Below, piece after piece: positions 2,373-56,021 of a stretch of 64,000 bases of DNA. The stretch spans positions 322,144 through 386,143 of the forward strand of contig OZ241967.1 of the NCBI GenBank assembly GCA_965204055.1, written 5' to 3'. Made by a program: the position numbers and the translations under genes. The stretch is from Bdellovibrionales bacterium (GTDB lineage Bacteria; Bdellovibrionota; Bdellovibrionia; Bdellovibrionales; UBA1609). How positions within the stretch are numbered: the stretch's first letter is position 1; the number at the start of each line of letters is the position of its first letter. Below the pieces are notes generated by a model, which did no database searches, was not told where the DNA came from, and was given only the letters and a program-made list of their open reading frames with translations.

Positions 2373-2494
2373 AGTTGGGTGTGAAAAAGTGTGTTGCAAT
2401 AAAGTAAACAGGATTTATTTTATCCCAAAATAGACGAGATTCCCGCTTTTGCGGGAATGACGGCGGGGACAAATGTGGTTTTGCACGGGCGACT
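2373..2494. mobile_element. MITE-like element (core type A) inside the TonB2 cluster
   Basis: Ends are AGTTGGGTGTGAAAAAG ... TTTTGCACGGGCGACT, an inverted repeat like the IS5 ends at 58396/60005. Flanked by AAAT on both sides. Internal hairpin GATTCCCGC-TTTT-GCGGGAATG. No ORF. Confidence 0.75.
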
Positions 2495-10068: not shown

Positions 10069-11520
10069 GTGTTTTTAATGATAAAAATAATTCTCTATCT
10101 TTTCTTTGTTTTGCTTGTTAGCTATTGCCCGGGGATGGAAAAACTTATCCATACACAATCAGCACCTCCACATAAAGAAAATAATACGCGACAGGTAGAT
10201 TCAGAATCTATGGGCAACAGCCAAGCGCAAAGTGCTAAAACGGCTGAAGTAAAAATACCAAAACAATGGGTTGATTTTAAAAAAGAACTCAAAAGCCGAA
10301 GAAACGCACTTACCTCTCCTATAGTTCAAAGGCGACTGGAGCGAATTTATAGAGTGATGGATCAAAAAGATTCCGAAGACAAAACTTTAAAGCTGATCAA
10401 TAAACTGGAAAATGTAGTCCAAAAACGGCCTTTTGAATTAGCGCGTCTTTACAAATTAAAAGCTCAGGTTTATCTCTCTAAAGAGGACTTGAAAAAAGCC
10501 ACTTTATATTACAATAAAGCTATGGATTTAAAAGTTCTCCCCTATAAAGAACATCTGTCTGTTATATACCACATGGCTACATTAAACCTGATGAATAACA
10601 AAGTAAAAAAAGCCTCTTATCTGATAAAACAATTATTTTATCTCTCCGATACCCCTTCTCCTTCTGCCTATATATTAAAAGCCTATATTCTAATAGAGAA
10701 AAAACAAAAAAAGCAGGCATTAGATATGGTAATGAAAGCTATTCAATCCACTTCTAAGCCTAAAGAACACTGGCTGGCTATGGCGGGTAGTTTGAATATA
10801 GAAATGGAAAGATATGTGCCTGCTGTGCGTTTTCTGACAGCACTTACTGCACTTAAGCCAAACAAAAAACAATATTGGAAAGGGCTTTCCAAGGTTTACT
10901 CAAATCTTGACAAGAACGATCGCGCGCTGGCTACTTTAGACTTAGCTTATAAACTGGAGTTTTTAGAAAACGAGCAGGAGATTTTACATCTGGCTGGCCT
11001 CCTTTTACACAAAGGACTTGCTTTTAAAGCGGGTCATTTAATTGAGAAATCCATAAAACTTAAAAAAATAAACCCCACTCAAAAAAACTATGAGGGATTA
11101 GGAGATTGTTGGATAGCGGCGGAAGAAACAGACAAAGCACTAACAGCTTACCAACATGCTTCTTCTTTTGCAAAAGACGGAAAAATATTTGCTAAATTAG
11201 GAGACATTTACATGAAAAATAAGAACTGGAAAAAAGCTCAGCAAAGCTGGACAAAAGCACTTGAAAAAGGCGGGATAAAACATCCAGAACAAATTTACAT
11301 TTCTCTTGGTGCTACACAGGCTTATTTAAAAGATTACAGCAAAGCTATAAAATCTTTTGAACAAGTTATTCATACTAAGGCAAAAGGGCAAGTCATAAAA
11401 ACGGCCAGGCAGTGGATTAATTATACCCAAACCCTTTTAGATAATTTTACTCAAGACATCAGCTCGTTTTCTGCTACTGCCCGCAAAGAATCACCCTCAT
11501 TCTCTCCTTTATCACAATAA
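10069..11520 (+). CDS. TPR-repeat protein (TtpD-like terminal gene of TonB2 clusters)
   Basis: N-terminal signal/TM segment, then multiple 34-aa TPR-like units (e.g. ARLYKLKAQVYLSKEDLKKATLYYNKAMDL, LGDIYMKNKNWKKAQQSWTKALE). The start could instead be ATG 10078. Confidence 0.8.
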   Translation: MFLMIKIILYLFFVLLVSYCPGMEKLIHTQSAPPHKENNTRQVDSESMGNSQAQSAKTAEVKIPKQWVDFKKELKSRRNALTSPIVQRRLERIYRVMDQKDSEDKTLKLINKLENVVQKRPFELARLYKLKAQVYLSKEDLKKATLYYNKAMDLKVLPYKEHLSVIYHMATLNLMNNKVKKASYLIKQLFYLSDTPSPSAYILKAYILIEKKQKKQALDMVMKAIQSTSKPKEHWLAMAGSLNIEMERYVPAVRFLTALTALKPNKKQYWKGLSKVYSNLDKNDRALATLDLAYKLEFLENEQEILHLAGLLLHKGLAFKAGHLIEKSIKLKKINPTQKNYEGLGDCWIAAEETDKALTAYQHASSFAKDGKIFAKLGDIYMKNKNWKKAQQSWTKALEKGGIKHPEQIYISLGATQAYLKDYSKAIKSFEQVIHTKAKGQVIKTARQWINYTQTLLDNFTQDISSFSATARKESPSFSPLSQ

Positions 11521-11551
11521 AATGAGGTAAAAATTTAAAACTACATAAAAT

Positions 11552-38517: not shown

Positions 38518-38541
38518 AACCTTTAACAGTGATCTCTCCAG

Positions 38542-38802
38542 TTAATGAGTTAATTTTTGAGGAAGTAGATATTTTAAACATTTTCTTAGCTTTGGATCAT
38601 CTGATCTATAATACTTCCCATTAATTTTAAAGTATTTATATTTCTTTTCTTTTTCATCAATATTTTTAGTCTCAGGCACCATATTCTGAATAATACAATT
38701 TTTCTCTTCTCTTGTTAAAATAAGAGGTTCATCAATAATATAATCTTTTTTACAAGCAGAAAACAATAAAAAAACCACAACCCATCTCATTTTAATCATC
38801 AA
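38542..38802 (-). CDS. Small hypothetical lipoprotein
   Basis: MMIKMRWVVVFLLFSAC signal/lipobox. 86 aa. Confidence 0.5.
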   Translation of the reverse strand: MMIKMRWVVVFLLFSACKKDYIIDEPLILTREEKNCIIQNMVPETKNIDEKEKKYKYFKINGKYYRSDDPKLRKCLKYLLPQKLTH

Positions 38803-39507
38803 CTCCTATCAAAATGGGCAAAAGGTTACTCCTTATATCAAAGTTATGGTTATTAAAAAACCTTTCAATGTCTTTGTGTGATGGATAAACTCTTTTCCCT
38901 CGATTAGTACAAGGAAACATAATATTAGCTGAATCCCAAGTATGCTTTAAACCAATAGCATGGCCTAACTCATGCGTCGCAATCGTTAGAAAGTCCATTT
39001 TATTACGATCCACTTCTTTGGGCCAATTCCAGTTGTTGTTTGAAGGGTTTTGTTCCTCAAAATGCCATACTCGATCAGTATTCATATTTATATATACCCC
39101 TTTAATTGTATCAGACACCCAGTACCATTTATTTGATTTGGAAGTAACTTCTCTGATGTCCATATTATATAAGAAGATTCCTTATAATCTGAATAATTAC
39201 CAGTTACAATAAAATAAGAAAATAATTTTTGAGGATATTCTCCTGGTTTTTTTAAATACTTTTCTAAGTAAGTTCTGTAAACTTTATTCCAAATCATTGT
39301 CGCGTAAATATACATTGTTGCTTTTTTCTCCCCTATTCTGGAATCAATAACTACAGGAATTGGAAATAAAGGATAGTGCCAATTCTCTGGCTGATCAGTG
39401 ATTAAGTTCTTTACATCACATTGCTCATTACCTCCACCTCCTATATTTATAGTTTCAGCGTCCACAAATGAAACCCATATAAGAATAAAGGCAATGTATT
39501 TTCTCAT
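38792..39507 (-). pseudogene. Matrixin-like (M10) zinc metalloprotease split by a frameshift
   Basis: The upstream ORF (39088-39507) supplies the signal peptide and pro-region. The downstream ORF (38792-39163) supplies HELGHAIGLKH. The two overlap in different frames near TATATAATATGG (about 39160). Confidence 0.6.
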
Positions 39508-39587
39508 TTCTAACCAGTTTGATTTTGCTTATAAATTTTATAGATTGTTTTTCGTGTCATAACTGTTTTGTTTTACATTTGATTTAT

Positions 39588-39755
39588 TTAAAATTTAATA
39601 TAGGCCCCTCCTCCCAGTTTTTTTATCAGTTTGCTTTTTAGATATTGATGGATAGACTGGGGGCTGATATTATGTGATTCAAACCAAGAGCGTGTATGGA
39701 TGGCCTCATCCTGCCAGTTCAGAAACAATCGGTTTTTTATCGGTTTTCTTTTCAT
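39588..39755 (-). pseudogene. AbiEi-type antitoxin N-terminal fragment (55 codons)
   Basis: MKRKPIKNRLFLNWQDEAIHTRSWFESHNISPQSIHQYLKSKLIKKLGGGAYIKF resembles the N-terminal wHTH of AbiEi_3-like proteins (...SGWL.KLG.GVY). The rest of the gene is absent. Confidence 0.45.
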
Positions 39756-39930
39756 AGGTTATATCCTTGTATAGTTTAAATATATCACAAAAAATCAATA
39801 AATAGTATATAAAATGTAGAAAAAATAAACTTTTTACTTAATTTCAGAAAAAAAGTGCTCTGTTTTGCCCGTCTATAGTCTAATGCGATCGCAGACAAAG
39901 AACCACGGCTTTAGCCGTGGTAGTCTATAT

Positions 39931-40073
39931 AGTGAAACGTGAAAAAGTATGTTATTTTGACTGGATTCTCCTTTGAAAAATGCTAAAAGTCCGTTGGGCT
40001 TTCATTTTAGGTTCTGGATACCCGCTTTCGCGGGTATGACAGCGAAGGAGAATGAGGTTTATCACGGAGGACT
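39931..40073. mobile_element. MITE-like element (core type B)
   Basis: Ends AGTGAAACGTGAAAAAG ... GGTTTATCACGGAGGACT. Perfect 4-bp flanks ATAT/ATAT. Hairpin GGATACCCGC-TTTC-GCGGGTATG. Confidence 0.75.
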
Positions 40074-40208
40074 ATATAATTCAGGTTTTTTTGATTTTTT
40101 TTAAGCAAGATCTTTATAGCTATTTCAAAAAGGCCGATACAGTTCACATTGTGGAGATATCTCAAGGAAATTCATCTCTTTAGGAAAGAGTATTAAGGGA
40201 GGTATATA

Positions 40209-40343
40209 ATGGATATTATTGGTGCTTTGTCAACAAGTAATTTTTTAAATGAAACAGATGTGAGAGAAGACTTTGTAAGTCCATTACTTAAAGCTTTAGG
40301 TTACTCGATTAGACATCTTCTTAATTTACTTGTAGTAGGTTAA
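40209..40343 (+). pseudogene. HsdR_N-like (type I restriction enzyme R N-terminal domain) scrap, 44 codons
   Basis: MDIIGALSTSNFLNETDVREDFVSPLLKALGYS... matches the typical start of the HsdR_N domain (sE.dvr..fi.PlL.aLGy), then terminates. Confidence 0.4.
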
Positions 40344-40384
40344 AGGAGAAGGATTTTAAATTCTAAAGTTAAAGGAAGTAAAAA

Positions 40385-41860
40385 ATGAGTATAGAAAAAA
40401 AAGAAAATATTTTAAAAGAAGAAAAGAAAAGAAAGTTAAATCTGCTTTTAGAAAAAAACCTCAACCCCTATCCTCACAATTTTAAGCGCGCCCAGGTAAG
40501 CTCTCAAATTAAAACCCAGTATGCGCATTTAAAACCGGGTGAGTCCGCAGAAGAGCCAACAAAAACCGCTGGTCGGTTAATGCTTAAAAGAAGTATGGGT
40601 AAAGTGGCCTTTTTCAATATTCAAGATCAAGAGGGAGATTTGCAGTGCTATCTTAAGATTCAAGAGTTAGATAAACAGTCCGCTCAGTTTTTTTCTTTGG
40701 TGGATATTGGAGATATTGTAGGAATGCAGGGGACTGTGTTTCGTACTAAAAGAGGGGAGCTGACTTTGCGCTGTTCGGAATTTCAAATTTTGTGTAAAAG
40801 CCTGGAACCTCTTCCTGAAAAATATCATGGTGTAGAAGATAAAGAACTAAAATACCGCCGAAGGTATTTAGATTTGATTATGAATCCTGATTCTAAAAAA
40901 GTGTTTCTTATTCGATCAAAAGTGATAAAGGAAATTCGTGCCTTTATGGATAAGCGGGGTTTTTTAGAGGTGGATACCCCTGTTCTTCAACCTCTTTATG
41001 GTGGGGCGGAGGCCCGGCCTTTTTCTACTCATCATCACGCTTTGGACTCTCATTTATATTTAAAAATATCTCCTGAGCTTTACCTAAAACGATTGATTAT
41101 AGGTGGGTTTGAGAAAGTTTACGAGTTAGGAAAAAACTTTAGAAACGAGGGCATTGATCGCTCCCACAACCCAGAGTTTATGATGTTAGAATATTACGAA
41201 GCTTACACAGATTATTTGGATCAGATGAAGCAGTTTGAAGAATTAGTTTGCCATGTAGTTAAAAATGTCCGGGGCAGTTTAAAGTTTGAGTATCAAGGCC
41301 GGGTTTTAGACTTTACTCCTCCTTGGAAAAGGATTAATGTATTAGAGGGGATTACACAACACGCTGGTTTTTCTTTAGAGAAAATGAGTAATAAAGAATT
41401 ATTTGATAAAATAAAATCCCTGGGGTCAGATATGGAAAAAGAAACCAGCCGGGGAGCTATGATTATGGAGGCTTTTGAGTTAACTGTAGAAAAGCATATT
41501 TGGCATCCGGTGTTTATTACTGATTTTCCGAAAGACATATCCCCTTTAACCAAAGAGCACAGGAGCGAAAAAGATCTGGTAGAACGATTTGAGCCGTATG
41601 TAGCAGGTATGGAATTAGGTAATGCCTATACAGAGTTAAACGATCCAGTGGATCAAAGAAACAGATTAGAGGAGCAAGAGAGAAAAAGAAAGTTAAATAA
41701 AGAGGCCCATGCTATGGATTATGAGTTTGCTCGTGCAGTGGATACAGGTATGCCTCCCACAGGGGGTGTGGGTTTGGGGGTAGAGCGTCTCATTCTTTTA
41801 TTGGCTGATCAACGTAGTATTAGAGACATTATTTTATTCCCCACTTTAAAATCTCTTTAA
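40385..41860 (+). CDS. lysS: Lysine--tRNA ligase (class II)
   Basis: OB-fold N-domain, class II motifs (FLEVDTPVLQ, FRNEGIDRSHNPEFMMLEYY, GGVGLGVERL). 491 aa. Confidence 0.93.
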   Translation: MSIEKKENILKEEKKRKLNLLLEKNLNPYPHNFKRAQVSSQIKTQYAHLKPGESAEEPTKTAGRLMLKRSMGKVAFFNIQDQEGDLQCYLKIQELDKQSAQFFSLVDIGDIVGMQGTVFRTKRGELTLRCSEFQILCKSLEPLPEKYHGVEDKELKYRRRYLDLIMNPDSKKVFLIRSKVIKEIRAFMDKRGFLEVDTPVLQPLYGGAEARPFSTHHHALDSHLYLKISPELYLKRLIIGGFEKVYELGKNFRNEGIDRSHNPEFMMLEYYEAYTDYLDQMKQFEELVCHVVKNVRGSLKFEYQGRVLDFTPPWKRINVLEGITQHAGFSLEKMSNKELFDKIKSLGSDMEKETSRGAMIMEAFELTVEKHIWHPVFITDFPKDISPLTKEHRSEKDLVERFEPYVAGMELGNAYTELNDPVDQRNRLEEQERKRKLNKEAHAMDYEFARAVDTGMPPTGGVGLGVERLILLLADQRSIRDIILFPTLKSL

Positions 41861-41878: not shown

Positions 41879-43438
41879 ATGAAAAAGAAATATAAAAAAT
41901 CAAAGCTGGAAAAAGAACCTATAGAAAAAAAACTGTGGCGGTCCGCAGATAGCTTGAGAAAAAATATTGATGCCGCTGAATACAAGCATATTGTGCTGGG
42001 GTTAATTTTCCTAAAATATATTTCTGATTCTTTTGAGGCCCTTTACAGTAAACTTAAAAAAGCACGAGGTAAATACGCAAAGGCTGATTTAGAAGATCGG
42101 GACGAATACAAGGCAGAAAATGTTTTTTTTGTGCCTCCTTTAGCTCGTTGGTCTTATTTACGCTCTCGTGCTAAAATGCCAGAAATTGGTCGGGACATTG
42201 ATTCAGCAATGTCTGCCATTGAAAAAGATAACCCTGCATTAAAAAATGTTCTTCCAAAGGTATATGCTAAAGGTAACTTAGATCCGATAAGCCTTGGGAA
42301 ACTTATTGATGAGCTGAGCAATATTGATATGGAGTCTGCTAAAAATCACAGTGCAGATATTTTAGGCCATGTGTTTGAATATTTTTTAGGTCAATTTGGC
42401 CTGGCAGAGGGTAAAAAGGGTGGGCAGTTTTACACCCCTCGCTCTGTTGTAAAACTTTTGGTGGAAATGCTTAAGCCTTACAAGGGTAAGGTGTTTGATC
42501 CTTGCGCAGGAACAGGCGGTATGTTTGTGCAGTCGGAAGAATTTATTAAAGAGCATCAGGGGCGCATTAATGATATTTCCATTTACGGACAGGAGAGCAA
42601 CCAAACCACTTGGCGACTATCTAAGATGAACTTGGCTATTCGTGGGATTGAAAGTTCAAAGGTAAAATGGAACAGTGAAGGTTCTTTTTTGAAAAACGCT
42701 CACCCGGATTTAAAAGCGGATTACATTATTGCTAACCCACCTTTTAACGACAGCAGTTGGGGCCAGGCTTTGCTTAAACAGGATGGACGGTGGAAGTATG
42801 GTTTGCCACCAGAGGGGAATGCTAATTTTGCCTGGATCCAGCATTTTATTCATCATTTAAAACCTCCGGCAGAAAATCAACCAGGTGGTCAAGCGGGCTT
42901 TGTGATGGCTAAAGGTTCTTTAACTTCTAAATCTTCAAACGAAGATAAAATCCGAAAAAACATGGTCGAAGATCATCTTATAGACTGCATTGTAAATTTG
43001 CCTGCAAAACTTTTTTTAAACACTCAAATTCCTGCATCTCTTTGGTTTTTAAGAAGGGGGAAAACTTATCGTCGAGATCAAATTCTTTTTATTGACGCCA
43101 GAAATAAGGGGCGTCTTATCAACCGCCGAAACCGCGTGTTGGACGATGAGGATATTCATAAAATTGCTCATGTATATCGTAGCTGGTTAGCAGAAGGGGA
43201 GAGTCCTTTACTTTACACAGATGAACCAGGTTTTTGTGCTTCTGTTTCTATTCAAAAGATCCGGGAGTTAGATTACATTTTAAGTCCGGGTCGTTATGTA
43301 GGGTTACCGGAGGAAGACGATGACTTTAATTTTGCAGAAAAATTTACAGAATTAAAGGGCCGTTTAGATCAGCAAATGAAGGAGGAGGCAAAATTAAACA
43401 GTCGCATTAAAAAAAACCTCTCTCGCATTGATATATGA
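41879..43438 (+). CDS. hsdM: Type I restriction-modification methyltransferase subunit
   Basis: HsdM N-domain (LWRSADSLRKNIDAAEYKHIVLGLIFLKYISD), GQFYTPRSVVKLLVEML, DPCAGTGGMF, catalytic IIANPPFN. Starts 18 nt after the lysS stop. Confidence 0.9.
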   Translation: MKKKYKKSKLEKEPIEKKLWRSADSLRKNIDAAEYKHIVLGLIFLKYISDSFEALYSKLKKARGKYAKADLEDRDEYKAENVFFVPPLARWSYLRSRAKMPEIGRDIDSAMSAIEKDNPALKNVLPKVYAKGNLDPISLGKLIDELSNIDMESAKNHSADILGHVFEYFLGQFGLAEGKKGGQFYTPRSVVKLLVEMLKPYKGKVFDPCAGTGGMFVQSEEFIKEHQGRINDISIYGQESNQTTWRLSKMNLAIRGIESSKVKWNSEGSFLKNAHPDLKADYIIANPPFNDSSWGQALLKQDGRWKYGLPPEGNANFAWIQHFIHHLKPPAENQPGGQAGFVMAKGSLTSKSSNEDKIRKNMVEDHLIDCIVNLPAKLFLNTQIPASLWFLRRGKTYRRDQILFIDARNKGRLINRRNRVLDDEDIHKIAHVYRSWLAEGESPLLYTDEPGFCASVSIQKIRELDYILSPGRYVGLPEEDDDFNFAEKFTELKGRLDQQMKEEAKLNSRIKKNLSRIDI

Positions 43439-43462
43439 TGTCCCGCTCGGTTTAAAAAACCC

Positions 43463-43491
43463 TTGACTTTTTATACTTAAAAGGATATAAT
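43463..43491 (+). promoter_or_regulatory. Consensus sigma70 promoter (TTGACT-17-TATAAT)
   Basis: -35 at 43463-43468 and -10 at 43486-43491. Followed by a leader of about 165 nt before the 43660 gene. Confidence 0.6.
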
Positions 43492-43659
43492 GTTTACTGT
43501 TTTATTTTGACTCTCAGTGTTATAGAAATAGGATTTCTGTTTTTTTTGAGTATTAGCTATAAAGTGGAAATCCCTTAATCAGACAGCTAAATTTCAAACT
43601 GGTTGGGTTTGATGAAGCTATAAAAGGTAGGGGTTGCAAACCAATAAAAAAATTAAGAG

Positions 43660-44220
43660 GTGGTAATGACTTTAGCCAGTAAAAAATTAAAAGAGCTTAT
43701 TGATGAAGCAACATCTAAAAAATCCGGAGTGGACTGGGATAGGGTTTTAGTGGAATGGAAAAGCCATGTCCACCATTTGTATAAACAAGTTGAAATCTGG
43801 ATAAGAAAGTCAGGTGCGTTTAATAAAATACAATTGGATAAGCGGGAAATAACAATTTCTGAAAACCACATTGGTTCTTATCAAATAGATCAGCTGATAT
43901 GGACAGTAGGTGGTCATATTATCAACTTTATTCCTCAAGGAAGATTGATTATAGGTGCCAAAGGTAGGGTGGACATCATTTGTGGTAGCCGAAAAGCACT
44001 TCTTTTGCTGTTGAGCAAAGATGGGCAACCCTCTATAAAAACCCAGGAGTTTAATACAGAACTTGAATATGAAAAGTACAAAGAGCGCGAAAGCAAAAAG
44101 ATAAAAAAACACAGATCACAAGATCTGGTATGGAAAATCTCAAGGCAAATACCAACAACTGGGGTAAGTCTCTTTACTGAAAATGAATTTACAGAAGTTT
44201 TTGAACAACTGATTGCTTAG
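43660..44220 (+). CDS. Hypothetical protein embedded in the hsd locus (186 aa)
   Basis: ORF with a GAGGTGG RBS. No recognisable motif. Confidence 0.6.
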   Translation: MVMTLASKKLKELIDEATSKKSGVDWDRVLVEWKSHVHHLYKQVEIWIRKSGAFNKIQLDKREITISENHIGSYQIDQLIWTVGGHIINFIPQGRLIIGAKGRVDIICGSRKALLLLLSKDGQPSIKTQEFNTELEYEKYKERESKKIKKHRSQDLVWKISRQIPTTGVSLFTENEFTEVFEQLIA

Positions 44221-44330
44221 GATGAGTGTACTCTGGTTTTAACAACCTTTAGTCACTTTTTATTTCAATACTTTATTTTATAATAACAGGAATACGGTAT
44301 AATTAATTTAAGCAAATGGAATAGGTTGGA

Positions 44331-44882
44331 ATGATAAAAATAAATATATTTTATGATATAAATAGTTGTTATATTCATTCTCGATTAGCTTTAACCCGGC
44401 TTGAGAGAACAATAAAAACGCGCCCTGATGATATAAATGAATTACAGGACTTTTTAGGTATGACTGAAAATGAAGCCAGACAGTATTTTCAAAAATTACA
44501 AGATGAATTGGAAACAGCGTATGTTTTTAAAATTGTGTCTGCTATGGAAGCAGTTTTTAGGCAGGATTTTAATAAACGGGTGAGAAAACGAAAACTAAGC
44601 CAAGAACCAAATAAAAGTTTTAAAAAAATATTTAAAAAAAAAGCCACCCTTAGCAGAGTTCATTTGAAAGAAGATATATTGGAAATATGGAAAAAGAAGG
44701 TGCATGGTGTACATAAACCCACTATTTCCAAATTTTATGAACTTATAAATTATCGCCATTGGATAGCGCATGGGCAATATTGGTTATATCAGCAAAAAAA
44801 ATTTGATATACCATCAACTATAACAATTGTAACAAGTGTATTTAATGAGTGCCGACGTGTAGCACCTGATTTTAGTCATTAA
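44331..44882 (+). CDS. Predicted HEPN-domain protein (RiboL-PSP/Swt1-like)
   Basis: C-terminal Rx4H motif in ELINYRHWIAHGQYW. All-helical look. Located between hsdM and hsdS. Confidence 0.55.
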   Translation: MIKINIFYDINSCYIHSRLALTRLERTIKTRPDDINELQDFLGMTENEARQYFQKLQDELETAYVFKIVSAMEAVFRQDFNKRVRKRKLSQEPNKSFKKIFKKKATLSRVHLKEDILEIWKKKVHGVHKPTISKFYELINYRHWIAHGQYWLYQQKKFDIPSTITIVTSVFNECRRVAPDFSH

Positions 44883-44892
44883 GGAAGAGCAA

Positions 44893-45309
44893 ATGAGCAA
44901 TATCAATTATGAAAAACTAAAAAAATCTCTTGAGAAATTGGAAGAACAATATGAAAATTTTCTCACATTGGATAAAAAAAATATATCCGATCTTGATAAA
45001 GAGGCTATTAAAGAATCTGTTATACATAGGTTTGAAGTTTGCTATGACATTTTTTTTAAAAGTTTGAAAAAATATCTCCAGAAAGAAGGATTAACTGTGG
45101 ACTCAAGTGCCCCAAGAGCTATCCTTCGTAAAGCTAATGAAAGCGGTTTGATAGATCAGGAAACATTAGATAATTGGTTTGCCCATATTGAGTTAAGAAT
45201 AGGAACAGCTCACGACTACAGTTTAGAGAAAGCAGAACAAGCTTTAAGAAAAATAAGTGATTTTATTGAAGATGTGAAAGATATTTACAAAGTGATGTGT
45301 TCTTTATAA
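44893..45309 (+). CDS. HEPN-domain protein, HI0074 family (nucleotidyltransferase substrate-binding protein)
   Basis: ESVIHRFEVCYDIFFKSLKKYL and the Rx4H motif ELRIGTAHDYS. 138 aa. Followed by an MNT domain. Confidence 0.75.
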   Translation: MSNINYEKLKKSLEKLEEQYENFLTLDKKNISDLDKEAIKESVIHRFEVCYDIFFKSLKKYLQKEGLTVDSSAPRAILRKANESGLIDQETLDNWFAHIELRIGTAHDYSLEKAEQALRKISDFIEDVKDIYKVMCSL

Positions 45310-45338
45310 TTTCAAGTACTATTAGGAATAAAAATAAA

Positions 45339-47444
45339 ATGGTTAAAGAGAATTTAATAGATCTGGATAGAAAGCAACTTAAGCTTTTACAGGCAATCAT
45401 TAAAACTTGTATTCCCGGTAAAACAGTTTGGGCTTATGGTTCTCGTGTTTTTTGGAAAGCAAGAGAAAACTCTGATTTGGATTTAGCTGTTTTTGGTTGT
45501 TCTTCCAGGCAAATATATAATTTTAAGGAGGCTTTAGAGGAAAGCAATTTGTTAGTTTCTGTTGATGTAATGGACTGGGAAAGTATACCTGAAAGCTTTA
45601 AAGTCAATATCAAAAAAAAATATGTAGTTTTACAGAAAAGCGAAGATATATTAGACTCACAGGAAAACAATATTGAAATTTCTATTAGCCGGGAGCATGC
45701 AGTTTATGCCAGAGATATAGAAAAATGTTTTGGTGTATTGAATGTAAAAGTCCAGCCTAATTTTTGTCGAAAGTCAATAGACGAGCTTCCGATGAAGATT
45801 ATAATTTTTCTTACAGAAGTAGTTGTTACAGGTGCATTCTGGGAGTTACTAAAGGCAGGAATTAAAAAAGTTTTCAAAAACTTTAATCAAGTTAATATGG
45901 ATATTGATGATAATAGGCCAAATAAGAATCCTAATATAATGCGCTATACAATAGATAGTGATGGAAATGTTTTTGTATATGCGGATTCTTCTGAAAAAAT
46001 AAAAGAATATTCATATATAAAAACCATTGATGATTTATTAGAACATTTGAAAAATCAAGCTTCACAAAGCAAGTCCGCTTCAGGAGGCAAGTCATCTTCT
46101 GGAAACATGTTATCCTCAGGAAGTAAGTTATCTTCAGGGAGCCAGCCATCTTTAAGAAGTTTGTCATTCCCGCGAAGGCGGGAATCCAGTCAAAAAAAAA
46201 TTTTCTCTGGATTGACTGATCAACCTATGTTAAAAGGCTGGCGCAAAGTGAAACTTAAGGAAATAATTAACTTAATAGGAGGAGGTACACCTAAGACTAA
46301 TATACCGGAATATTGGAATGGAAATATTCCATGGCTTTCAGTGACAGATTTTAATACGGGCAGAAAATATGTGTATAGCACTGAAAAATATATTACCAAT
46401 CTTGGGTTACAAAAAAGCAATACAAAAATCCTTAATAAAGATGACATTATTATTTCTGCAAGAGGAACTGTAGGGGTTGTTTCTATGACAGGAAAAGAAA
46501 TGGCCTTTAATCAATCATGTTATGGAATAAGGGCTAAAGATGAATCGTTTAATGAATATATTTACTACTTGTTAAAAAATACCGTAAATCAGCTACAACA
46601 TATTTCTCATGGTGGGGTGTTTGATACAATTACAAGAGATACCTTTAATAAAGTTGAAGTGCCTCTTCCTCCACTTCTTGAGCAAAAAGCGATTGCAGAG
46701 GTCTTGTCCAGTTTGGATGATAAAATTGAACTATTGCATGAGCAAAACAAAACTTTGGAAGAAATAGCTCAAACCCTTTTCCGCAAGTGGTTTATCCAGG
46801 ACGCCAACCCCCATTGGCCACAAAAACCTTTAGATGAATTGCTAAGTACAATCGAGTCTGGTTCACGGCCAAAAGGAGGAATTAATCCAGAGTTAAAACA
46901 AGGGATACCTAATATAGGGGCTGAAAGCATAAATGGTATAGGAAGATTTGACTTTTCAAAAACAAAATATGTAACAGATGAATTTTTTAAAAATATGAAA
47001 AAAGGGGTTGTAAAAGATTATGATGTTCTAATCTATAAAGATGGTGCTTATATTGGCAAAAAAGCAATGTTTGGCAACGGATTTCCTTTTAAGAAAATGG
47101 CTGTCAATGAGCATGTTTTTATTTTAAGAACCAACAGTAAAGCAGATCAATTTTTTCTTTATTTTTCACTGGAACAGAAAAAGTTATCAAAACTAAATGC
47201 TAATTCCGCCCAACCGGGCTTAAATCAAAAATCTATGAAGTCTCTTAAGATCATTATCCCACAAAAAGATATAATAAATAATTTTCAGAATACTGTTAAG
47301 CCGTGGATTGATAAGATACTTTTTAACAGTAATCAAATCAGAAATCTTGCAGATCTTCGCAACACCCTCCTACCCAAGCTAATAACCGGTCAAGTCCGAG
47401 TAACTTTTAAAAATAAAAAAACACAAATAAGTTCATCTTGTTAA
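45339..47444 (+). CDS. hsdS: Minimal nucleotidyltransferase (MNT) domain continuous with a type I specificity subunit (apparent MNT-linker-HsdS fusion)
   Basis: MNT motif GSRVFWKARENSDLDLAVFG...VDVMDW. No stop codon up to TAA 47444. Ser/Gly linker from 6 x 18-bp repeats (46069-46176). HsdS part begins at MLKGWRKVKLKEIINLIGGGTPKT (46227), with central LPPLLEQKAIAEVLSSLDDKIELL and C-terminal LADLRNTLLPKLITGQVRV. Confidence 0.65.
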   Translation: MVKENLIDLDRKQLKLLQAIIKTCIPGKTVWAYGSRVFWKARENSDLDLAVFGCSSRQIYNFKEALEESNLLVSVDVMDWESIPESFKVNIKKKYVVLQKSEDILDSQENNIEISISREHAVYARDIEKCFGVLNVKVQPNFCRKSIDELPMKIIIFLTEVVVTGAFWELLKAGIKKVFKNFNQVNMDIDDNRPNKNPNIMRYTIDSDGNVFVYADSSEKIKEYSYIKTIDDLLEHLKNQASQSKSASGGKSSSGNMLSSGSKLSSGSQPSLRSLSFPRRRESSQKKIFSGLTDQPMLKGWRKVKLKEIINLIGGGTPKTNIPEYWNGNIPWLSVTDFNTGRKYVYSTEKYITNLGLQKSNTKILNKDDIIISARGTVGVVSMTGKEMAFNQSCYGIRAKDESFNEYIYYLLKNTVNQLQHISHGGVFDTITRDTFNKVEVPLPPLLEQKAIAEVLSSLDDKIELLHEQNKTLEEIAQTLFRKWFIQDANPHWPQKPLDELLSTIESGSRPKGGINPELKQGIPNIGAESINGIGRFDFSKTKYVTDEFFKNMKKGVVKDYDVLIYKDGAYIGKKAMFGNGFPFKKMAVNEHVFILRTNSKADQFFLYFSLEQKKLSKLNANSAQPGLNQKSMKSLKIIIPQKDIINNFQNTVKPWIDKILFNSNQIRNLADLRNTLLPKLITGQVRVTFKNKKTQISSSC

Positions 47445-47472
47445 AACTAATAAACCGTCAAGTGGAGGTAAA

Positions 47473-48291
47473 GTGTCATCATTAAAAATGCACGAGAAAA
47501 CTATTTTTGAAAAATTATTTAATCGTGATGGATATGTCCTTAATTTTACTGATAGAACTTTTGCTGAGTTCTTTAGAGAACATAGAATAAACATTGAAGA
47601 CAATAAATATCATATTAACGGTAGATCAAAAATGAAGAGGCTTAGGGCTTTTTGGGAAATTGAGTCAGACAAAACTGTTGGTCAAGTACTACAATCCTTG
47701 CTTGAATATGCTTGCAATATAGACAGTGTTAGCCCTGATGCTAAGGACAATGCTATGAAAATAGTTTCACGATTATTACAAAAAGAAAATCGAGAACAAA
47801 TCACAGAACAGGAACCGGAGGATATTTTTCTAAAACAAGAATTTAAAGACATTGCTATTGAGAAACTGAATCTAAATATTGAGATGCAAGAAGTGATTAA
47901 AATGAGAATAGAAGAAATTAAAAAATGTTTAAAGTTAAAAGCATCACTGGCAACAATTTTTTTATGTGGAAGCACTCTTGAGGGGATACTACTTTCCGTT
48001 GCAGAAAATCATGCTGATAAATTTAAAACCATAGCTAAAGATAAAAAATGGAAAGTTTTACCATTTCATAAATGGACTCTTGGTAATCTTATTGATGTTT
48101 CTAAAGGAATTGGATTATTACATGAAGACGTAAAAAACTTTAGTCATTCATTAAGAAAGTTTAGGAATTACATTCATCCATATCAACAAGCTGTTGAAAA
48201 TTTTAACCCAGATGAAAATACTGCTAAACTATGTTGGCAAGTTTTAAAAGTAGCCATTGTTCAAATAAGTAAAAATAGCAAAATAAGATAA
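47473..48291 (+). CDS. AbiJ-like protein: AbiJ-NTD-like N-terminus + HEPN-type C-terminus
   Basis: GGAGG RBS. N-terminus FEKLFNRDGYVLNFTDRTFAEFFREHRINIEDNKY...KRLRAFW. C-terminal motif LRKFRNYIHP (Rx6H). Confidence 0.5.
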   Translation: MSSLKMHEKTIFEKLFNRDGYVLNFTDRTFAEFFREHRINIEDNKYHINGRSKMKRLRAFWEIESDKTVGQVLQSLLEYACNIDSVSPDAKDNAMKIVSRLLQKENREQITEQEPEDIFLKQEFKDIAIEKLNLNIEMQEVIKMRIEEIKKCLKLKASLATIFLCGSTLEGILLSVAENHADKFKTIAKDKKWKVLPFHKWTLGNLIDVSKGIGLLHEDVKNFSHSLRKFRNYIHPYQQAVENFNPDENTAKLCWQVLKVAIVQISKNSKIR

Positions 48292-48295
48292 AAAA

Positions 48296-48616
48296 TCAAG
48301 AGACATCAAATGTTAAATCAATTTCAGAGTAAATGTGGGTCAGATACTGAACCAGTTTTTCAACAGTAAATTCGTCAAAATGGTAATGTAAAATTTTATT
48401 CATTAATTCTGGTTCTATATTTACTTTTTGAGCCAGAGCTTTAAGGGTTAGCTTATGAGTGTTTTTATAGATCATAAATTTTTCACAAATTCGAAATTTT
48501 ACTCGATCTATCGCACTGGCTGATCTTGAAAGAGGACGAGAGGCAATATTATTTTCTAAAAGCTCTCTATTTGCTTTTAATTCTGTTTGTGATGGAAACT
48601 TTTGCATATTACACAA
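48296..48616 (-). CDS. HTH (XRE/HTH_37-like) putative antitoxin
   Basis: KLTLKALAQKVNIEPELMNKILHYHFDEFTVEKLVQYL resembles HigA2/HTH_37 antitoxins. Downstream of a small toxin-like gene. Confidence 0.5.
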   Translation of the reverse strand: MCNMQKFPSQTELKANRELLENNIASRPLSRSASAIDRVKFRICEKFMIYKNTHKLTLKALAQKVNIEPELMNKILHYHFDEFTVEKLVQYLTHIYSEIDLTFDVS

Positions 48617-48709: not shown

Positions 48710-49009
48710 TCATTTGCTTTTAATTCTAAAAGCATTTATTACCCTTAAAAAATCATCATAAATATACAGCAACAAAATCAATCGATAAGGTTTGTCTTTA
48801 TAGACAACTGGTTCAATGACAAGATATTGAAAACCATCTTTTTCTTTATCTATAGGAAAGTGTCCTCCGTTTAATTGTCGAACTAACAAAAGAATTAGCC
48901 AGTCGTTGATTTCAGGGTGTTTTAATTTGTAATGTTGATCAATAATTACTCTTTTTATTTGTCGGTTGTTAATTTTTAAGCTAAGTGGATATTCTCTGCG
49001 TTCCGACAT
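48710..49009 (-). CDS. DUF4258-like putative toxin
   Basis: 99 aa. IDQHYKLKHPEI...KPYRLILLLYIYDDFLRVINAFR recalls the DUF4258/BrnT-type small RNase fold. Paired with an HTH gene. Confidence 0.4.
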   Translation of the reverse strand: MSERREYPLSLKINNRQIKRVIIDQHYKLKHPEINDWLILLLVRQLNGGHFPIDKEKDGFQYLVIEPVVYKDKPYRLILLLYIYDDFLRVINAFRIKSK

Positions 49010-49555: not shown

Positions 49556-51370
49556 GTGAGAAAAAACCCATTTTACCCCCCCCCCCCCCCGCACCGCGTC
49601 ATTCTTAGGGTTCTTAAGAGGGCCTTGTTTAACAAAAAAGGCATTGGACTAATGGAAACCCTGATGGTTAGTGCTTTAGGCTTAACCATCAGCTATGGCG
49701 TTTTTAAAGTGAATGAAGTTTCTATGTACACCGCAAAGGTAGTCAATAGTAATTTGGATCAGAAGGATTTAAGAGGCACTATTTATAAAACTTTAGGTAA
49801 TAAAGAGGCTTGCGTTCATAACTTAAAGAAGCCGGCCAGCTCTTCCCCAAAAACTTCTATAACTTCTTTACAGGCCAAGAGTGGGGCAAATTGGATTAAC
49901 TTAATTAACAGTCAAGCAAATCAAAACCTATTTAAAAATAGTTTAAGAATCCAGAAATTTGAATTTAAAAATAGCAAAGATTTTATTATTCATTACAGCA
50001 AAGAGGGTTTAGGTAGGCACGAGACTTTGGCCAAGTCAGATGGGACAAAGGGAGTTTGCACTAAAACAGACACCACAGATTGTTACTCCGTAGAGTGTAA
50101 AATAGATTTTTCCTGTAGTAATAATGATTGTGATGGGTCTGGTGATAGGTGCTCACTTTTAGATTGCACAGGCGGGGCAGAAGGGGGCGGTGGTGCAAAC
50201 TGCTATCAAGTGGATAACACAGGGCCAGATAAAGCTAAAACCCTTATTGGTTGTGGTGGAGCGCACAAAGCCAAAGGAGAAAAGGTCACTGTTTTAGGTT
50301 TTGGCGCGGGTAAAGTTAACGAGGGCGATAATAACACTTTTTTAGGAGCTTATGCGGGATATAGAAACACCAGTGGGGACCGTAATGTTTTTGTAGGGGA
50401 AGTGGCCGGGAAGGTTAACACCAAAGGGAAACAAAACACTTTTATAGGTGTTGCCAGTGGGCATAAAAACCTCACTGGGGCTTATAATACTTTTGTAGGG
50501 ACATGGGCCGGGGCAAGCAATGTCACAGGGACAGATAACACCTTTATTGGACAAGATGCGGGCAGACACAACACGTCAAATTTTAACACTTTTGTTGGAA
50601 AAAAAGCTGGCCTTAACAATGCGGGTGGGGGGGGTAATACTTTTATAGGAGAAAGGGCAGGAGAGAGTAACAATTCTGGTTACCACAACACTTTTATTGG
50701 TTCTGGTGCAGGTTTAACCCATAAAACAGGGCACGATAACATTGTTATAGGGAGACATGTAAAGCTTGATTCAGCCACTGGTAGTAACCAGATTAACATT
50801 GGTAACATAATAAAGGCTGGTTCAGGTTTCTTACAAATATGCGATAGCACCGGAAATAACTGCTTAAAAATAAGTAAAGCAGGGCTTAAATGTGATGAGA
50901 ATCATTACTTTAGAGGGATAGATAATGACGGCAATCCTATGTGTCATTCTTTACATACAGTAAGATTTTCTGGTCATTGTGGGGGAAATCAATATCTTTA
51001 TGGAATATCAAGCTCTAATAGGCCGATGTGCAGAAATCTCCCCTCTGGTGGTGGTGGTGGCACACCCGGACCAGCCGGGCCACGCGGACCAGCCGGACCA
51101 GCCGGACCACAAGGACCACAAGGACCTCCTGGTGAAGCAGGAACAACCGCTGAATTAAAACGGAAAGTTTTAGGAAATACCAGTTGTCCAAGTGGACAAA
51201 TATTTCAAAACAGGTTTGATGCTAATGGAAATATGGTATGTATAACAAGAGCGCAAAAATGTAGTAATGATGGTGGTAGATGGTGTATGAGAAGAAATAG
51301 ATGTCTTTATTGCTCGCCTTGGGAAATTACGGATATGAGTGAGTGTAGATGTTTTGATAATAGTAGATAG
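49556..51370 (+). CDS. Prepilin-leader protein with tail-fibre-like repeats, collagen run and Cys-rich C-terminus
   Basis: AAGGAG RBS 7 nt before GTG 49556. Leader ...ALFNKKG|IGLMETLMVSALGLTISYGVF, with Glu at +5. About 9.5 x 17-aa NTF(I/V)GxxAGxxNxxG units (50333-50810). GTPGPAGPRGPAGPAGPQGPQGPPGEAG. Confidence 0.8.
   Translation: MRKNPFYPPPPPHRVILRVLKRALFNKKGIGLMETLMVSALGLTISYGVFKVNEVSMYTAKVVNSNLDQKDLRGTIYKTLGNKEACVHNLKKPASSSPKTSITSLQAKSGANWINLINSQANQNLFKNSLRIQKFEFKNSKDFIIHYSKEGLGRHETLAKSDGTKGVCTKTDTTDCYSVECKIDFSCSNNDCDGSGDRCSLLDCTGGAEGGGGANCYQVDNTGPDKAKTLIGCGGAHKAKGEKVTVLGFGAGKVNEGDNNTFLGAYAGYRNTSGDRNVFVGEVAGKVNTKGKQNTFIGVASGHKNLTGAYNTFVGTWAGASNVTGTDNTFIGQDAGRHNTSNFNTFVGKKAGLNNAGGGGNTFIGERAGESNNSGYHNTFIGSGAGLTHKTGHDNIVIGRHVKLDSATGSNQINIGNIIKAGSGFLQICDSTGNNCLKISKAGLKCDENHYFRGIDNDGNPMCHSLHTVRFSGHCGGNQYLYGISSSNRPMCRNLPSGGGGGTPGPAGPRGPAGPAGPQGPQGPPGEAGTTAELKRKVLGNTSCPSGQIFQNRFDANGNMVCITRAQKCSNDGGRWCMRRNRCLYCSPWEITDMSECRCFDNSR
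49576..49590 (+). repeat. Poly-C tract (15 nt) inside the 5' end of the ORF
   Basis: Fifteen consecutive C at 49576-49590, encoding YPPPPP 20 nt after the start codon. A G8 run lies at 50627-50634 in the same gene. Confidence 0.95.
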
Positions 51371-51534
51371 AAAATAAGATTTAAGCTTTGCTTTCCAGCT
51401 TTTCAATGCGCTTTTCCAGTTTTTCTATATAATCCAAACGATTGTCCAATATTTTTTCAATCGTTTTAAACTCTTCAGCATGCAACAATGATCTTGGACT
51501 TGGGATTGTGGCTGTGGCGGGGGTCCAGGTAATC

Positions 51535-51650
51535 AAAACGGAAATACTTATTGTCCTTAGCATACTGGGGATAGTCGGCGGGATAGCGACTATTTCATAT
51601 AAAGGTTATAATTTAAGTGTTCAAAAGAAAGATTTAAAACTATCAGGGGA
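51535..51650 (+). pseudogene. Type IV pilin N-terminal helix fragment, truncated by IS fragment
   Basis: VIKTEILIVLSILGIVGGIATISYKGY aligns with the pilin consensus FTLIELLIVIAIIGILAAIAIPQY, but lacks a proper Gly-1 and leader. It abuts IS-derived sequence at about 51651. Confidence 0.4.
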
Positions 51651-52126
51651 GCCGGCCCTTTCTGATGTGCAAAGTTTAACAGGAGTTTGTTTAAAGCGAG
51701 TGTTTGTAGATAAAGGCTATAGGGGGGAGAAGCATCATCCTGAAGGATTGGAGGTTAATGTAAGCGGTCAGAGACCATCACCCAGTCGTTATCATCGCCG
51801 TTTGGCACGTCGAAGGAACAGTGTAGAGGCAGTGATAGGTCATTTGAAGGGGGATTGTCGTATGGAGAGGAATTTTTTACATGGTGAGCTGGGTGATGGA
51901 GTGAATGCTTTACTTTCTGGAAGTGGATACAATATAAGGAGATTGATAAGAGAAGTAAATGGGTTGCCTTCTTTTTTTGTTCTTTTTATCAAGAGGTTTT
52001 TTACTATGTTATTTTGTTTTTCGGCAAAGCCTTAAGTGGTGAGGGTCCAAGCGTTATCGTCCCGAACAAGCTTAAGGTTTTGCAGACCACAGCTTAAACT
52101 TAAAAGAGGTTTTTTCACGACCGATT
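51651..52126 (+). mobile_element. 3' fragment of the IS5-family element (last ~125 codons of the transposase + right end)
   Basis: Near-identical to 59505-60005 (PALSDVQSLTGVCLKRVFVDKGYRG...), with a small internal deletion. Ends ...GGTTTTTTCACGACCGATT. Confidence 0.85.
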
Positions 52127-55876: not shown

Positions 55877-56021
55877 AGTAGAGCGTGAAAAAATCTGTTG
55901 CAATAAAGTAAACAGGATTTATTTTATCCTAAAACAGGCGAGATTCCCGCTCAAGGCGGGACTGTAAAGCCAAGTACTTGGCTTTACAGTTGGAGATGAA
56001 CAGGGTTTATCACGGGCGACT
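55877..56021. mobile_element. MITE-like element (core type A)
   Basis: Ends AGTAGAGCGTGAAAAAA ... GGTTTATCACGGGCGACT. Perfect 4-bp flanks AAAT/AAAT. Palindrome CTGTAAAGCCAAGTACTTGGCTTTACAG. Confidence 0.8.

Follow-up and report, generated by a model that had tools for sequence, protein, structure and literature searches.

Latent anticodon nucleases such as PrrC (EcoprrI) and RloC are embedded in type I restriction-modification (R-M) hsd loci, where the R-M proteins keep them silent. Orphan type I M+S methyltransferases, in which hsdM and hsdS are kept without hsdR, are known as well, and the HepT-MntA toxin-antitoxin systems include Shewanella SO_3166/SO_3165 and Haemophilus HI0074/HI0073. 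HepT-MntA is a type VII toxin-antitoxin system, in which the antitoxin nucleotidylates (AMPylates) the toxin (PMC11586414). Ronin combines an hsdR-less hsdMS pair with the toxin RonA; HsdMS keeps this toxin in check until Ocr or ArdA sets it free (Silas et al., bioRxiv 10.1101/2023.04.06.535777). Several HEPN families, namely DUF4145, AbiJ, Abi2/AbiD/F, and AbiU2, have been described as embedded in R-M operons and proposed to be PrrC-like back-up suicide RNases; the R-M-associated HEPN domains are fused only to nuclease, helicase, or ATPase subunits, and the minimal nucleotidyltransferase (MNT) is almost always located 5' of the HEPN gene (Anantharaman et al., 2013; PMC3710099). Here, we analyzed a type I R-M locus at positions 41,879-48,291 of a 64,000-nucleotide stretch of DNA (the window, 64 kb) from a Bdellovibrionales bacterium (contig OZ241967.1, positions 322,144-386,143), in which an HEPN gene is followed by one open reading frame (ORF) coding for an MNT domain and HsdS (MNT::HsdS). 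Our reading, to which we give a probability of about 0.55, is that the locus is an hsdR-deleted derivative of a widespread type I R-M subtype with an HEPN + MNT::HsdS guard or addiction pair.

All genes of the locus are on the + strand, and the core features are the following:

41879-43438, + strand: hsdM, type I m6A DNA methyltransferase subunit, 519 aa (HsdM_N and N6_Mtase, E 1e-103)
44893-45309, + strand: ORF138 (HEPN138), HI0074/HepT-like HEPN toxin candidate, 138 aa (NTase_sub_bind; Rx4HxY)
45339-47444, + strand: MNT domain fused via an insert to HsdS, one ORF, 701 aa (Polbeta and two Methylase_S matches)
45339-45638, + strand: MNT (Pol-beta nucleotidyltransferase) domain of this ORF (Polbeta, E 3e-10; GSx10DxD)
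45639-46226, + strand: lineage-specific in-frame insert of ~196 aa, absent from all other fusions
46227-47444, + strand: HsdS specificity module with two target recognition domains (TRDs) and conserved regions (Methylase_S, E 3e-48, two stretches)

The catalytic motifs NPPF and DPCAGTG were intact in the hsdM product, and the exact HsdM protein is present in public collections. ORF138 matched the Pfam family NTase_sub_bind (E 3e-23) and scored 63.4 bits against TIGR01987, above the cut-off of 55.8. Its motif R102-IGTA-H107-D-Y109 (RIGTAHDY) has the form Rx4HxY, with both the Rx4H site and the adjacent acceptor Tyr present. Profile matches and motif agree with a preliminary description of this DNA, which had named an HI0074-family HEPN protein at this place. 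The MNT domain carries GSRVFWKARENSDLD, a GSx10DxD motif, and forms one unbroken frame of 701 codons with the insert and HsdS, from the ATG at 45339 to the stop at 47444. The exact 701-aa fusion is also recorded as a single protein in public collections. The Methylase_S match covers aa 313-710 of the query, which was the 715-aa GTG-start form of the ORF, and a complete two-TRD HsdS begins at the ...GWRKVKL... junction. The preliminary description had placed four items, among them an MNT gene, in a 2.8-kb gap between hsdM and the HsdS module. The positions of the genes were confirmed, and the nucleotidyltransferase was supported by its motif and the Polbeta match; however, it is not a separate gene but part of the 701-aa HsdS ORF.

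The HEPN/MNT pair resembles HepT-MntA in that an HEPN protein with Rx4HxY is encoded beside a minimal nucleotidyltransferase with GSx10DxD, and the HI0074 subfamily model was passed. By these sequence features, the pair is a member of the HI0074/HEPN-MNT superfamily. However, the antitoxin is here the N-terminal domain of HsdS and not a free protein of ~100 aa encoded upstream of the toxin. In addition, the HEPN gene comes first, hsdM and hsdS flank the pair, and neither protein reached the NCBIfam equivalog cut-off of 60 bits (HepT_toxin, 26.0 bits; MntA_antitoxin, 36.3 bits). The fusion of the partner MNT to the specificity subunit and the 5' position of the HEPN gene also differ from the pattern reported in PMC3710099.

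The same architecture was found in many other bacteria. When the first 296 residues of the 701-aa protein were used as the query, 81 of the 92 best MNT homologues had at least 450 aa, and almost all of them carry Polbeta and Methylase_S; identity over the MNT domain was 60-75% in this search. The MNT domains of 81 fusion proteins are 60-77% identical to that of the window, and the named fusion homologues are annotated solely as "restriction endonuclease subunit S". A scan of one genome per species with an alignment of the MNT domain gave 40 loci from 40 species of several phyla, including Nitrospirales, Gammaproteobacteria (Ca. Spongiihabitans, Poriferihabitaceae), Bdellovibrionales, Oligoflexia, Spirochaetota, Thermodesulfobacteriota, Brocadiaceae, Ca. 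Scalindua, and others. Across these loci, the MNT-starting ORF typically has 482-510 aa, the HEPN protein keeps Rx4HxY, the MNT domain keeps GSx10DxD, and hsdM is directly upstream. An HEPN gene of 137-145 aa ends 4 nt inside the start of the fusion (ATGA overlap) in ~27 of the 40 loci, and ORF138 is 44-61% identical to the HEPN genes located 5' of MNT::hsdS in other species. The preliminary description had proposed a check for conservation of the gene order, and the order hsdM-HEPN-MNT::hsdS was indeed found in other genomes. A locus of Ca. Oxydemutator (L038:9998-14065) has an MNT-starting ORF of 1355 aa with a second MNT-like match upstream, which may be a larger fusion.

Unfused and plasmid-borne forms were also observed. 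An unfused operon of overlapping genes, hsdM-HEPN-MNT-hsdS-hsdR, is located on Acetobacter plasmids, and the plasmid pZMOB01 of Zymomonas mobilis ATCC 10988 carries an HEPN gene, then a 527-aa MNT::HsdS, and then hsdR. Stand-alone HEPN-then-MNT pairs are present in two further loci (L035 and L037) and in pZA1001. It is likely that an HEPN-first HEPN/MNT pair was inserted between hsdM and hsdS, and that the stop codon of the MNT gene was lost later. The plasmid system hsdRMSp of Zymomonas ZM4 (PMC8432527) was considered as a further example on account of a skipped locus tag between hsdM and hsdS, seemingly an embedded HEPN gene with a viable hsdS deletion. It was rejected, as pZM32 carries a plain hsdR-hsdM-hsdS with a 420-aa S subunit and no HEPN/MNT.

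The restriction subunit is usual in this family. A fused ORF together with complete flanks of 10 kb was available for 24 genome loci. Of these, a full hsdR was present in 18, one more hsdR was cut by the locus end, one locus (L016) had a remnant only, and 4 had none within 10 kb. In the loci L005-L007, an HsdR of 1061-1070 aa (HSDR_N, ResIII, SWI2_SNF2, T1R_D3-like, T1RH-like_C) is encoded within the same locus. The HsdM of the window is 61-64% identical to the HsdM proteins of fusion loci having hsdR, and therefore the HsdR proteins of those loci are of the cognate type. HEPN/MNT also occurs alongside hsdR on the plasmids of cultured Zymomonas and Acetobacter. The suggestion of the preliminary description that the HEPN RNases replaced HsdR is not supported, as the triad coexists with hsdR in 19 of the 24 flanked loci (with the one cut by the locus end included).

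In the window, tblastn with three cognate-family HsdR proteins gave no match at E<=1. No hsdR ORF with ResIII/HSDR_N was present in the 64 kb, and inspection of ORFs of at least 700 aa returned only two, which are RNase_Y_N-like and FadB-like. These results confirmed the earlier statement that no hsdR gene lies within the 64 kb. The same three HsdR proteins had no match in the nearest relative (L002; tblastn, E<=1). In another related locus, L001, tblastn revealed a 58-codon C-terminal remnant of hsdR (60-70% identity) ~4 kb 3' of the homologue of ORF272 (described below), which is the canonical position. Because most family loci keep hsdR and L001 retains this C-terminal remnant, the hsdR-less state is, judged from these comparisons, a secondary deletion in this lineage. 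Named relatives place the lineage probably in Bdellovibrionota/Oligoflexia.

Of the components of a complete type I R-M system, HsdM and a two-TRD HsdS are present here, and HsdR is absent from the 64 kb. The locus shares hsdMS without hsdR with the orphan type I M+S methyltransferases, and its retention may be enforced by the toxin-antitoxin pair. As in the PrrC and RloC loci, the type I R-M operon here includes the gene of a putative latent RNase toxin, which the R-M proteins presumably keep silent. However, silencing would here be enzymatic, via the fused nucleotidyltransferase, and not by binding alone, the window is without hsdR, and no ATPase or PrrC-type Pfam match was found in any ORF of 43.4-48.3 kb. 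The likeness to Ronin lies in an hsdR-less hsdM/hsdS, in the window only, that is tightly linked to a toxin. The candidate effector is an HEPN RNase here, and the effector is the 61-aa membrane peptide RonA in Ronin; moreover, the antitoxin is covalently fused to HsdS, and the family is normally hsdR-positive. By analogy, the locus may work in the manner of PrrC/EcoprrI and Ronin without belonging to either, and it would be at most a Ronin analogue, as its candidate effectors are HEPN proteins. PADLOC also matched mad2/mad5 of MADS, which we rejected as generic HsdM/HsdS similarity (57.9 versus 720 bits and 62.9 versus 400 bits with the NCBIfam models).

Comparison with the nearest relatives suggests how the HEPN/MNT pair evolves. 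L002, whose lysS and hsdM products are 98% and 97.5% identical to those of the window, has the same locus downstream of lysS, in the order deoC-lysS-hsdM-HEPN139-MNT'::HsdS(501 aa)-ORF265 and without ORF186 and ORF183 of the window. The DNA identity of ~98% between the window and L002 stops exactly at the hsdM stop and is regained only over the central conserved region of HsdS and beyond 47333. The central and C-terminal conserved regions of HsdS are nearly identical in the window, L001, and L002, and the TRDs differ. HEPN138 is only 27% identical to HEPN139 of L001 and L002, and the MNT domain of the window is not alignable to theirs. This joint divergence, beside a nearly unchanged hsdM and nearly unchanged HsdS conserved regions, indicates that HEPN and MNT were replaced jointly, as a single module. 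Such co-exchange argues for a functional pair, as would be expected of a cognate toxin-antitoxin. In L001, 75 nt of a window-type MNT persist 5' of the HEPN139 gene.

We propose the following mechanism. The HEPN gene is wedged between hsdM and hsdS and would be translationally coupled, and the N-terminal domain of HsdS would be the MntA-like antitoxin. Through HsdS, the MNT domain would be held on the M2S methyltransferase complex. By analogy with HepT-MntA, the tethered MNT would AMPylate the Tyr beside the Rx4H site and thereby keep the HEPN RNase silent, and the presence and state of HsdS would control the toxin. If the locus were lost, or if HsdS were depleted or blocked, for example by phage anti-restriction proteins, the RNase would be set free and growth would stop. 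The pair might thus serve the R-M complex as an addiction or guard module that stabilizes the locus, possibly with a back-up role when phages disable R-M. In the window, an orphan M+S methyltransferase would be retained by a built-in toxin-antitoxin, with a possible remaining role as a Ronin-like tripwire. The locus can reasonably be read as a PrrC/Ronin-like coupling of a toxin to HsdMS. HsdMS had been suggested earlier to be the sensor or anchor of a toxin module, and the anchor idea is strengthened because the MNT is physically fused to HsdS; its companion, the HEPN proteins as a replacement for HsdR, was not.

The fusion of the window is unusual in its insert of 196 aa, which junction mapping placed precisely on the MNT/HsdS linker. 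The insert is without homologues or domains, and in no frame does it resemble the HEPN or MNT of L001/L002. Its last ~135 nt consist of an 18-nt tandem repeat (46059-46152) followed by a repetitive extragenic palindromic (REP)-like palindrome, ATTCCCGCGAAGGCGGGAAT, which starts at 46166 and has related copies elsewhere in the window. The palindrome ATTCCCGC-N4-GCGGGAAT and its variants recur in these genomes, often behind 18- or 21-nt tandem repeats, at the following positions:

Window 2439-2460, 40017-40040, 46166-46185, and 55946-55975: REP-like palindrome copies
L025:10300-10700 and 11227-11535: REP-like palindrome copies
L001:5460-5680: REP-like palindrome copies

In the Bdellovibrionales locus L025, the fusion has 735 aa, and 21-nt repeats and the same palindrome are inserted in frame at two sites, the MNT/HsdS linker and between the two TRDs. 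The palindrome is read as SFPRRRESS in the window fusion and twice as VIPAKAGIQ in the L025 fusion. Similarly, hsdM of L001 contains a repeat-rich in-frame insert of ~65 aa. These in-frame palindromes resemble the in-frame palindromic elements of Rickettsia. From the sequences, repeat-element insertions in inter-domain linkers of these proteins are evidently tolerated by these genomes.

Several further genes lie within or beside the locus:

40209-40343, + strand: HSDR_N-like scrap of 44 codons (HSDR_N, E 0.008, below cut-off)
40385-41860, + strand: lysS (lysyl-tRNA synthetase), housekeeping neighbour (Pfam tRNA-synt_2, E 5e-91)
43463-43491, + strand: sigma-70-like promoter ahead of ORF186 (TTGACT-17-TATAAT, 11/12, consensus match only)
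43666-44220, + strand: ORF186 (184 aa from ATG), first cassette gene
44331-44882, + strand: ORF183, putative HEPN-like, second cassette gene (Rx4H)
47488-48291, + strand: ORF272 (267 aa from ATG), two-domain, DUF4145-like (HEPN-type) C-terminus

ORF272 belongs to a family with 1729 homologues that are >50% identical and occur across phyla. DUF4145 (PF13643) matched the C-terminal domain in 36 of 52 homologues at E<=0.1, with a best E of 1.4e-5 and mostly below the Pfam cut-off. ORF272 of the window scored 14.8 bits against a cut-off of 23.1, and two homologues bear a precomputed PF13643 tag. The invariant motif R226-N-x-I-H230-P has Rx3H spacing. The AlphaFold2 (AF2) model of ORF272 (predicted local distance difference test, pLDDT, 86) gave weak Foldseek HEPN matches (HepT 6m6u, sacsin HEPN) with a target-normalized template modeling score of ~0.5 and E>2. 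AbiJ_NTD3/4/5 profiles had no match in ORF272 or its homologues (52 members, E<=0.1). The HEPN assignment made for this protein earlier is moderately supported; the AbiJ-NTD-like N-terminus is not supported by the NTD3/4/5 profiles. Homologues of ORF272 are located 2-3 nt 3' of hsdS in complete type I operons (hsdM-hsdS-X-AbiEii-hsdR) and also occur in non-R-M contexts. Like the DUF4145 genes described from R-M operons, ORF272 is an accessory gene; it fits the pattern in PMC3710099, as ORF183 possibly does. The 273-aa protein 3' of the fusion in L007 was rejected as a homologue of ORF272, with an identity of 22% only.

ORF186 had no match in Pfam, PADLOC, NCBIfam, or PDB, and the promoter-like site ahead of it is the best match in 39.5-49.5 kb. 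Both results agree with the earlier account of a 186-aa protein without a recognizable motif behind a consensus promoter. There are 957 representative homologues of ORF186, and its AF2 model (pLDDT 91) shows a helical hairpin plus a beta-sheet. With the AF2 models, Foldseek found no PDB fold analogue for ORF186 and no significant match for ORF272. Because ORF186 has this many homologues, no PDB fold analogue, and no Pfam family, its family is, as modeled, a common uncharacterized fold. ORF183 has six homologues, and YRHWIAHG (Rx4H) is conserved in all full-length ones; two members gave sub-threshold matches to HEPN_MAE_28990 and RiboL-PSP-HEPN (E 3e-3). The hhalign comparison of the ORF183 and ORF272 families was not significant, and no PDB chain was matched in sequence by ORF186, ORF183, or ORF272. 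The assignment of the 183-aa protein to HEPN, as made in the preliminary description, is plausible from the conserved Rx4H, although the profile matches are only sub-threshold. In L001, ORF186 is 86% identical and ORF183 is broken into 113 + 49 aa. Because the pair ORF186+ORF183 recurs in the locus L054 beside a TIR-domain gene and away from any R-M system, it is a mobile, independent two-gene cassette. The HEPN/MNT pair, ORF272, and ORF186+ORF183 each occur independently elsewhere, and the three HEPN-type genes do not form a single system. The earlier picture of a type I locus that lacks hsdR (within the window) and carries HEPN-type genes and an MNT is supported. ORF272 and ORF186+ORF183 are independent defense-island accretions and not parts of one machine.

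The gene lysS, which ends 18 nt before the ATG of hsdM (41879), is outside the system. No terminator-like site was detected in the lysS-hsdM gap, and both the coordinates and the terminator scan agree with what had been reported for this junction. The adjacency to lysS is real, but it is incidental, being common to the window and L002 only and absent in L001. The G+C content falls from ~0.39 across lysS-hsdM to ~0.31 across 44-48.5 kb, and all six ORFs are open despite the AT-rich DNA. Relative to L002, a 1.8-kb insertion (38526-40371) between deoC and lysS holds gene fragments, including a Peptidase_M10-like 123-aa ORF (38792-39163, - strand) and an AbiEi_3_N-like 55-aa ORF (39588-39755, - strand), together with a REP palindrome and the HSDR_N-like scrap. 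This scrap had been pointed out earlier as the only trace of hsdR. A weak HSDR_N match was indeed obtained, but it is below the cut-off and uninformative; the scrap aligns to residues 4-22 of the cognate HsdR at E 0.3. We rejected it as a remnant of the cognate hsdR in view of this weak similarity, its position in an insertion absent from L002, and the presence of lysS between the scrap and hsdM.

Directly 3' of ORF272 is a convergent gene pair coding for a 106-aa HTH_37 protein (48296-48616, - strand) and a 99-aa protein without a Pfam match (48710-49009, - strand). With 95% conservation in L002, these two genes probably form a toxin-antitoxin pair of their own. Farther along, a 604-aa ORF (49556-51370) with a hydrophobic N-terminus, a Gly/Pro-rich collagen-like stretch, and no Pfam match precedes a 197-aa ORF (51442-52035) with weak DDE-transposase similarity. 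In several loci of the family, a gene for an AAA_15/AAA_21 (OLD/DUF2813-like) ATPase is located directly 3' of MNT::hsdS or of the ORF272 homologue:

L006:11479-13392: AAA_15/AAA_21 ATPase gene
L025:12193-13914: AAA_15/AAA_21 ATPase gene
L001:11278-13257: AAA_15/AAA_21 ATPase gene

Fic-domain genes are often found 5' of hsdR in loci of this type. The AAA ATPase and Fic genes look like recurrent accessory genes of this R-M subtype.

We are highly confident of the descriptive part of our reading, which comprises the architecture and its conservation, the intact motifs, the co-exchange of the module, and the loss of R. The silencing of the HEPN RNase by an HsdS-tethered MNT is a more tentative proposal that draws on analogy, and several points weigh against the reading. 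A guard role against anti-restriction proteins would be pure analogy, and in classical MntA-HepT the order of the two genes is the opposite, with HEPN second. Because the HepT_toxin and MntA_antitoxin scores are far below the cut-offs, the HEPN/MNT pair is, at the sequence level, only distantly related to the studied HepT-MntA systems. The unique 196-aa insert and the REP element at the linker may impair the window fusion, and the absence of hsdR is established for the 64-kb window of a 2.3-Mb genome only. A further extension of the mechanism, which we regard as rather doubtful, is a self-guard, in which the antitoxin domain of HsdS would report the integrity or occupancy of M2S. DNA-mimic anti-restriction proteins or loss of HsdS would then stop AMPylation, and hsdR-less remnants would serve as a Ronin-like abortive-infection decoy.

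It is unlikely that the locus is a dedicated hsdR-less abortive-infection or decoy system, with HsdMS as the sensor of anti-restriction proteins and the HEPN RNases as the sole effectors, selected for that role. Such a system would explain why no hsdR lies in the 64 kb or in L002, nor within 10 kb of the Bdellovibrionales locus L024 or upstream of L017, and why all ORFs and motifs are intact after the loss of R; Ronin, an hsdR-less hsdMS with a toxin acting as decoy immunity, is a precedent. However, the triad is ancestral to the loss of hsdR and normally coexists with it, L001 contains plain debris of an hsdR deletion, and ORF183 is already broken in L001. We likewise consider it improbable that the locus belongs to a normal and complete type I R-M system in which hsdR acts in trans from elsewhere in the 2.3-Mb genome, with HEPN/MNT as a passenger toxin-antitoxin. 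Split type I systems are generally known, hsdM, hsdS, and their motifs are intact, and the inspected part of the genome amounts to 64 kb; yet hsdR is in the same locus in relatives, within ~7 kb, and in L001 it was deleted in situ and not moved. A low probability is also given to decay, that is, to a functionless remnant that has been eroding since the loss of hsdR and in which the fusion with the insert and REP element is inactive. The deletion of hsdR, the REP/tandem-repeat element and the 196-aa insert inside the S gene, the in-frame repeat insertions in hsdM of L001 and hsdS of L025, the pseudogenized ORF183 of L001, and the junk-rich insertion upstream of lysS would all fit such erosion. 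However, the six ORFs are open in AT-rich DNA, where ~190 stop-free codons would arise by chance at ~5e-8 (a rough base-composition estimate at this A+T, not computed with a tool). Moreover, the catalytic motifs are intact, hsdM shows no disruptions relative to L002, and the insertions are confined to linkers with the reading frame kept. On balance, an hsdR-deleted derivative of a type I R-M subtype with an HEPN + MNT::HsdS pair is the reading that we prefer.

In the literature covered, which did not extend to most papers in subscription journals, no account was found of an MNT-HsdS fusion or of an HEPN gene between hsdM and hsdS. As far as we found, the HEPN + MNT::HsdS subtype of type I R-M has not yet been described, and the public name "restriction endonuclease subunit S" hides its toxin-antitoxin link. 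PrrC, RloC, Ronin, and many HEPN proteins are known examples of toxins in R-M operons, but their control by the R-M complex is understood in few cases. A type VII antitoxin enzyme fused covalently to the specificity subunit would be a simple and testable wiring, and its conservation extends to dozens of species across phyla. Plasmids of cultured Zymomonas and Acetobacter carry related versions, which makes genetics and biochemistry feasible. The locus also shows how an orphan M+S methylase may be stabilized after the loss of the restriction subunit.

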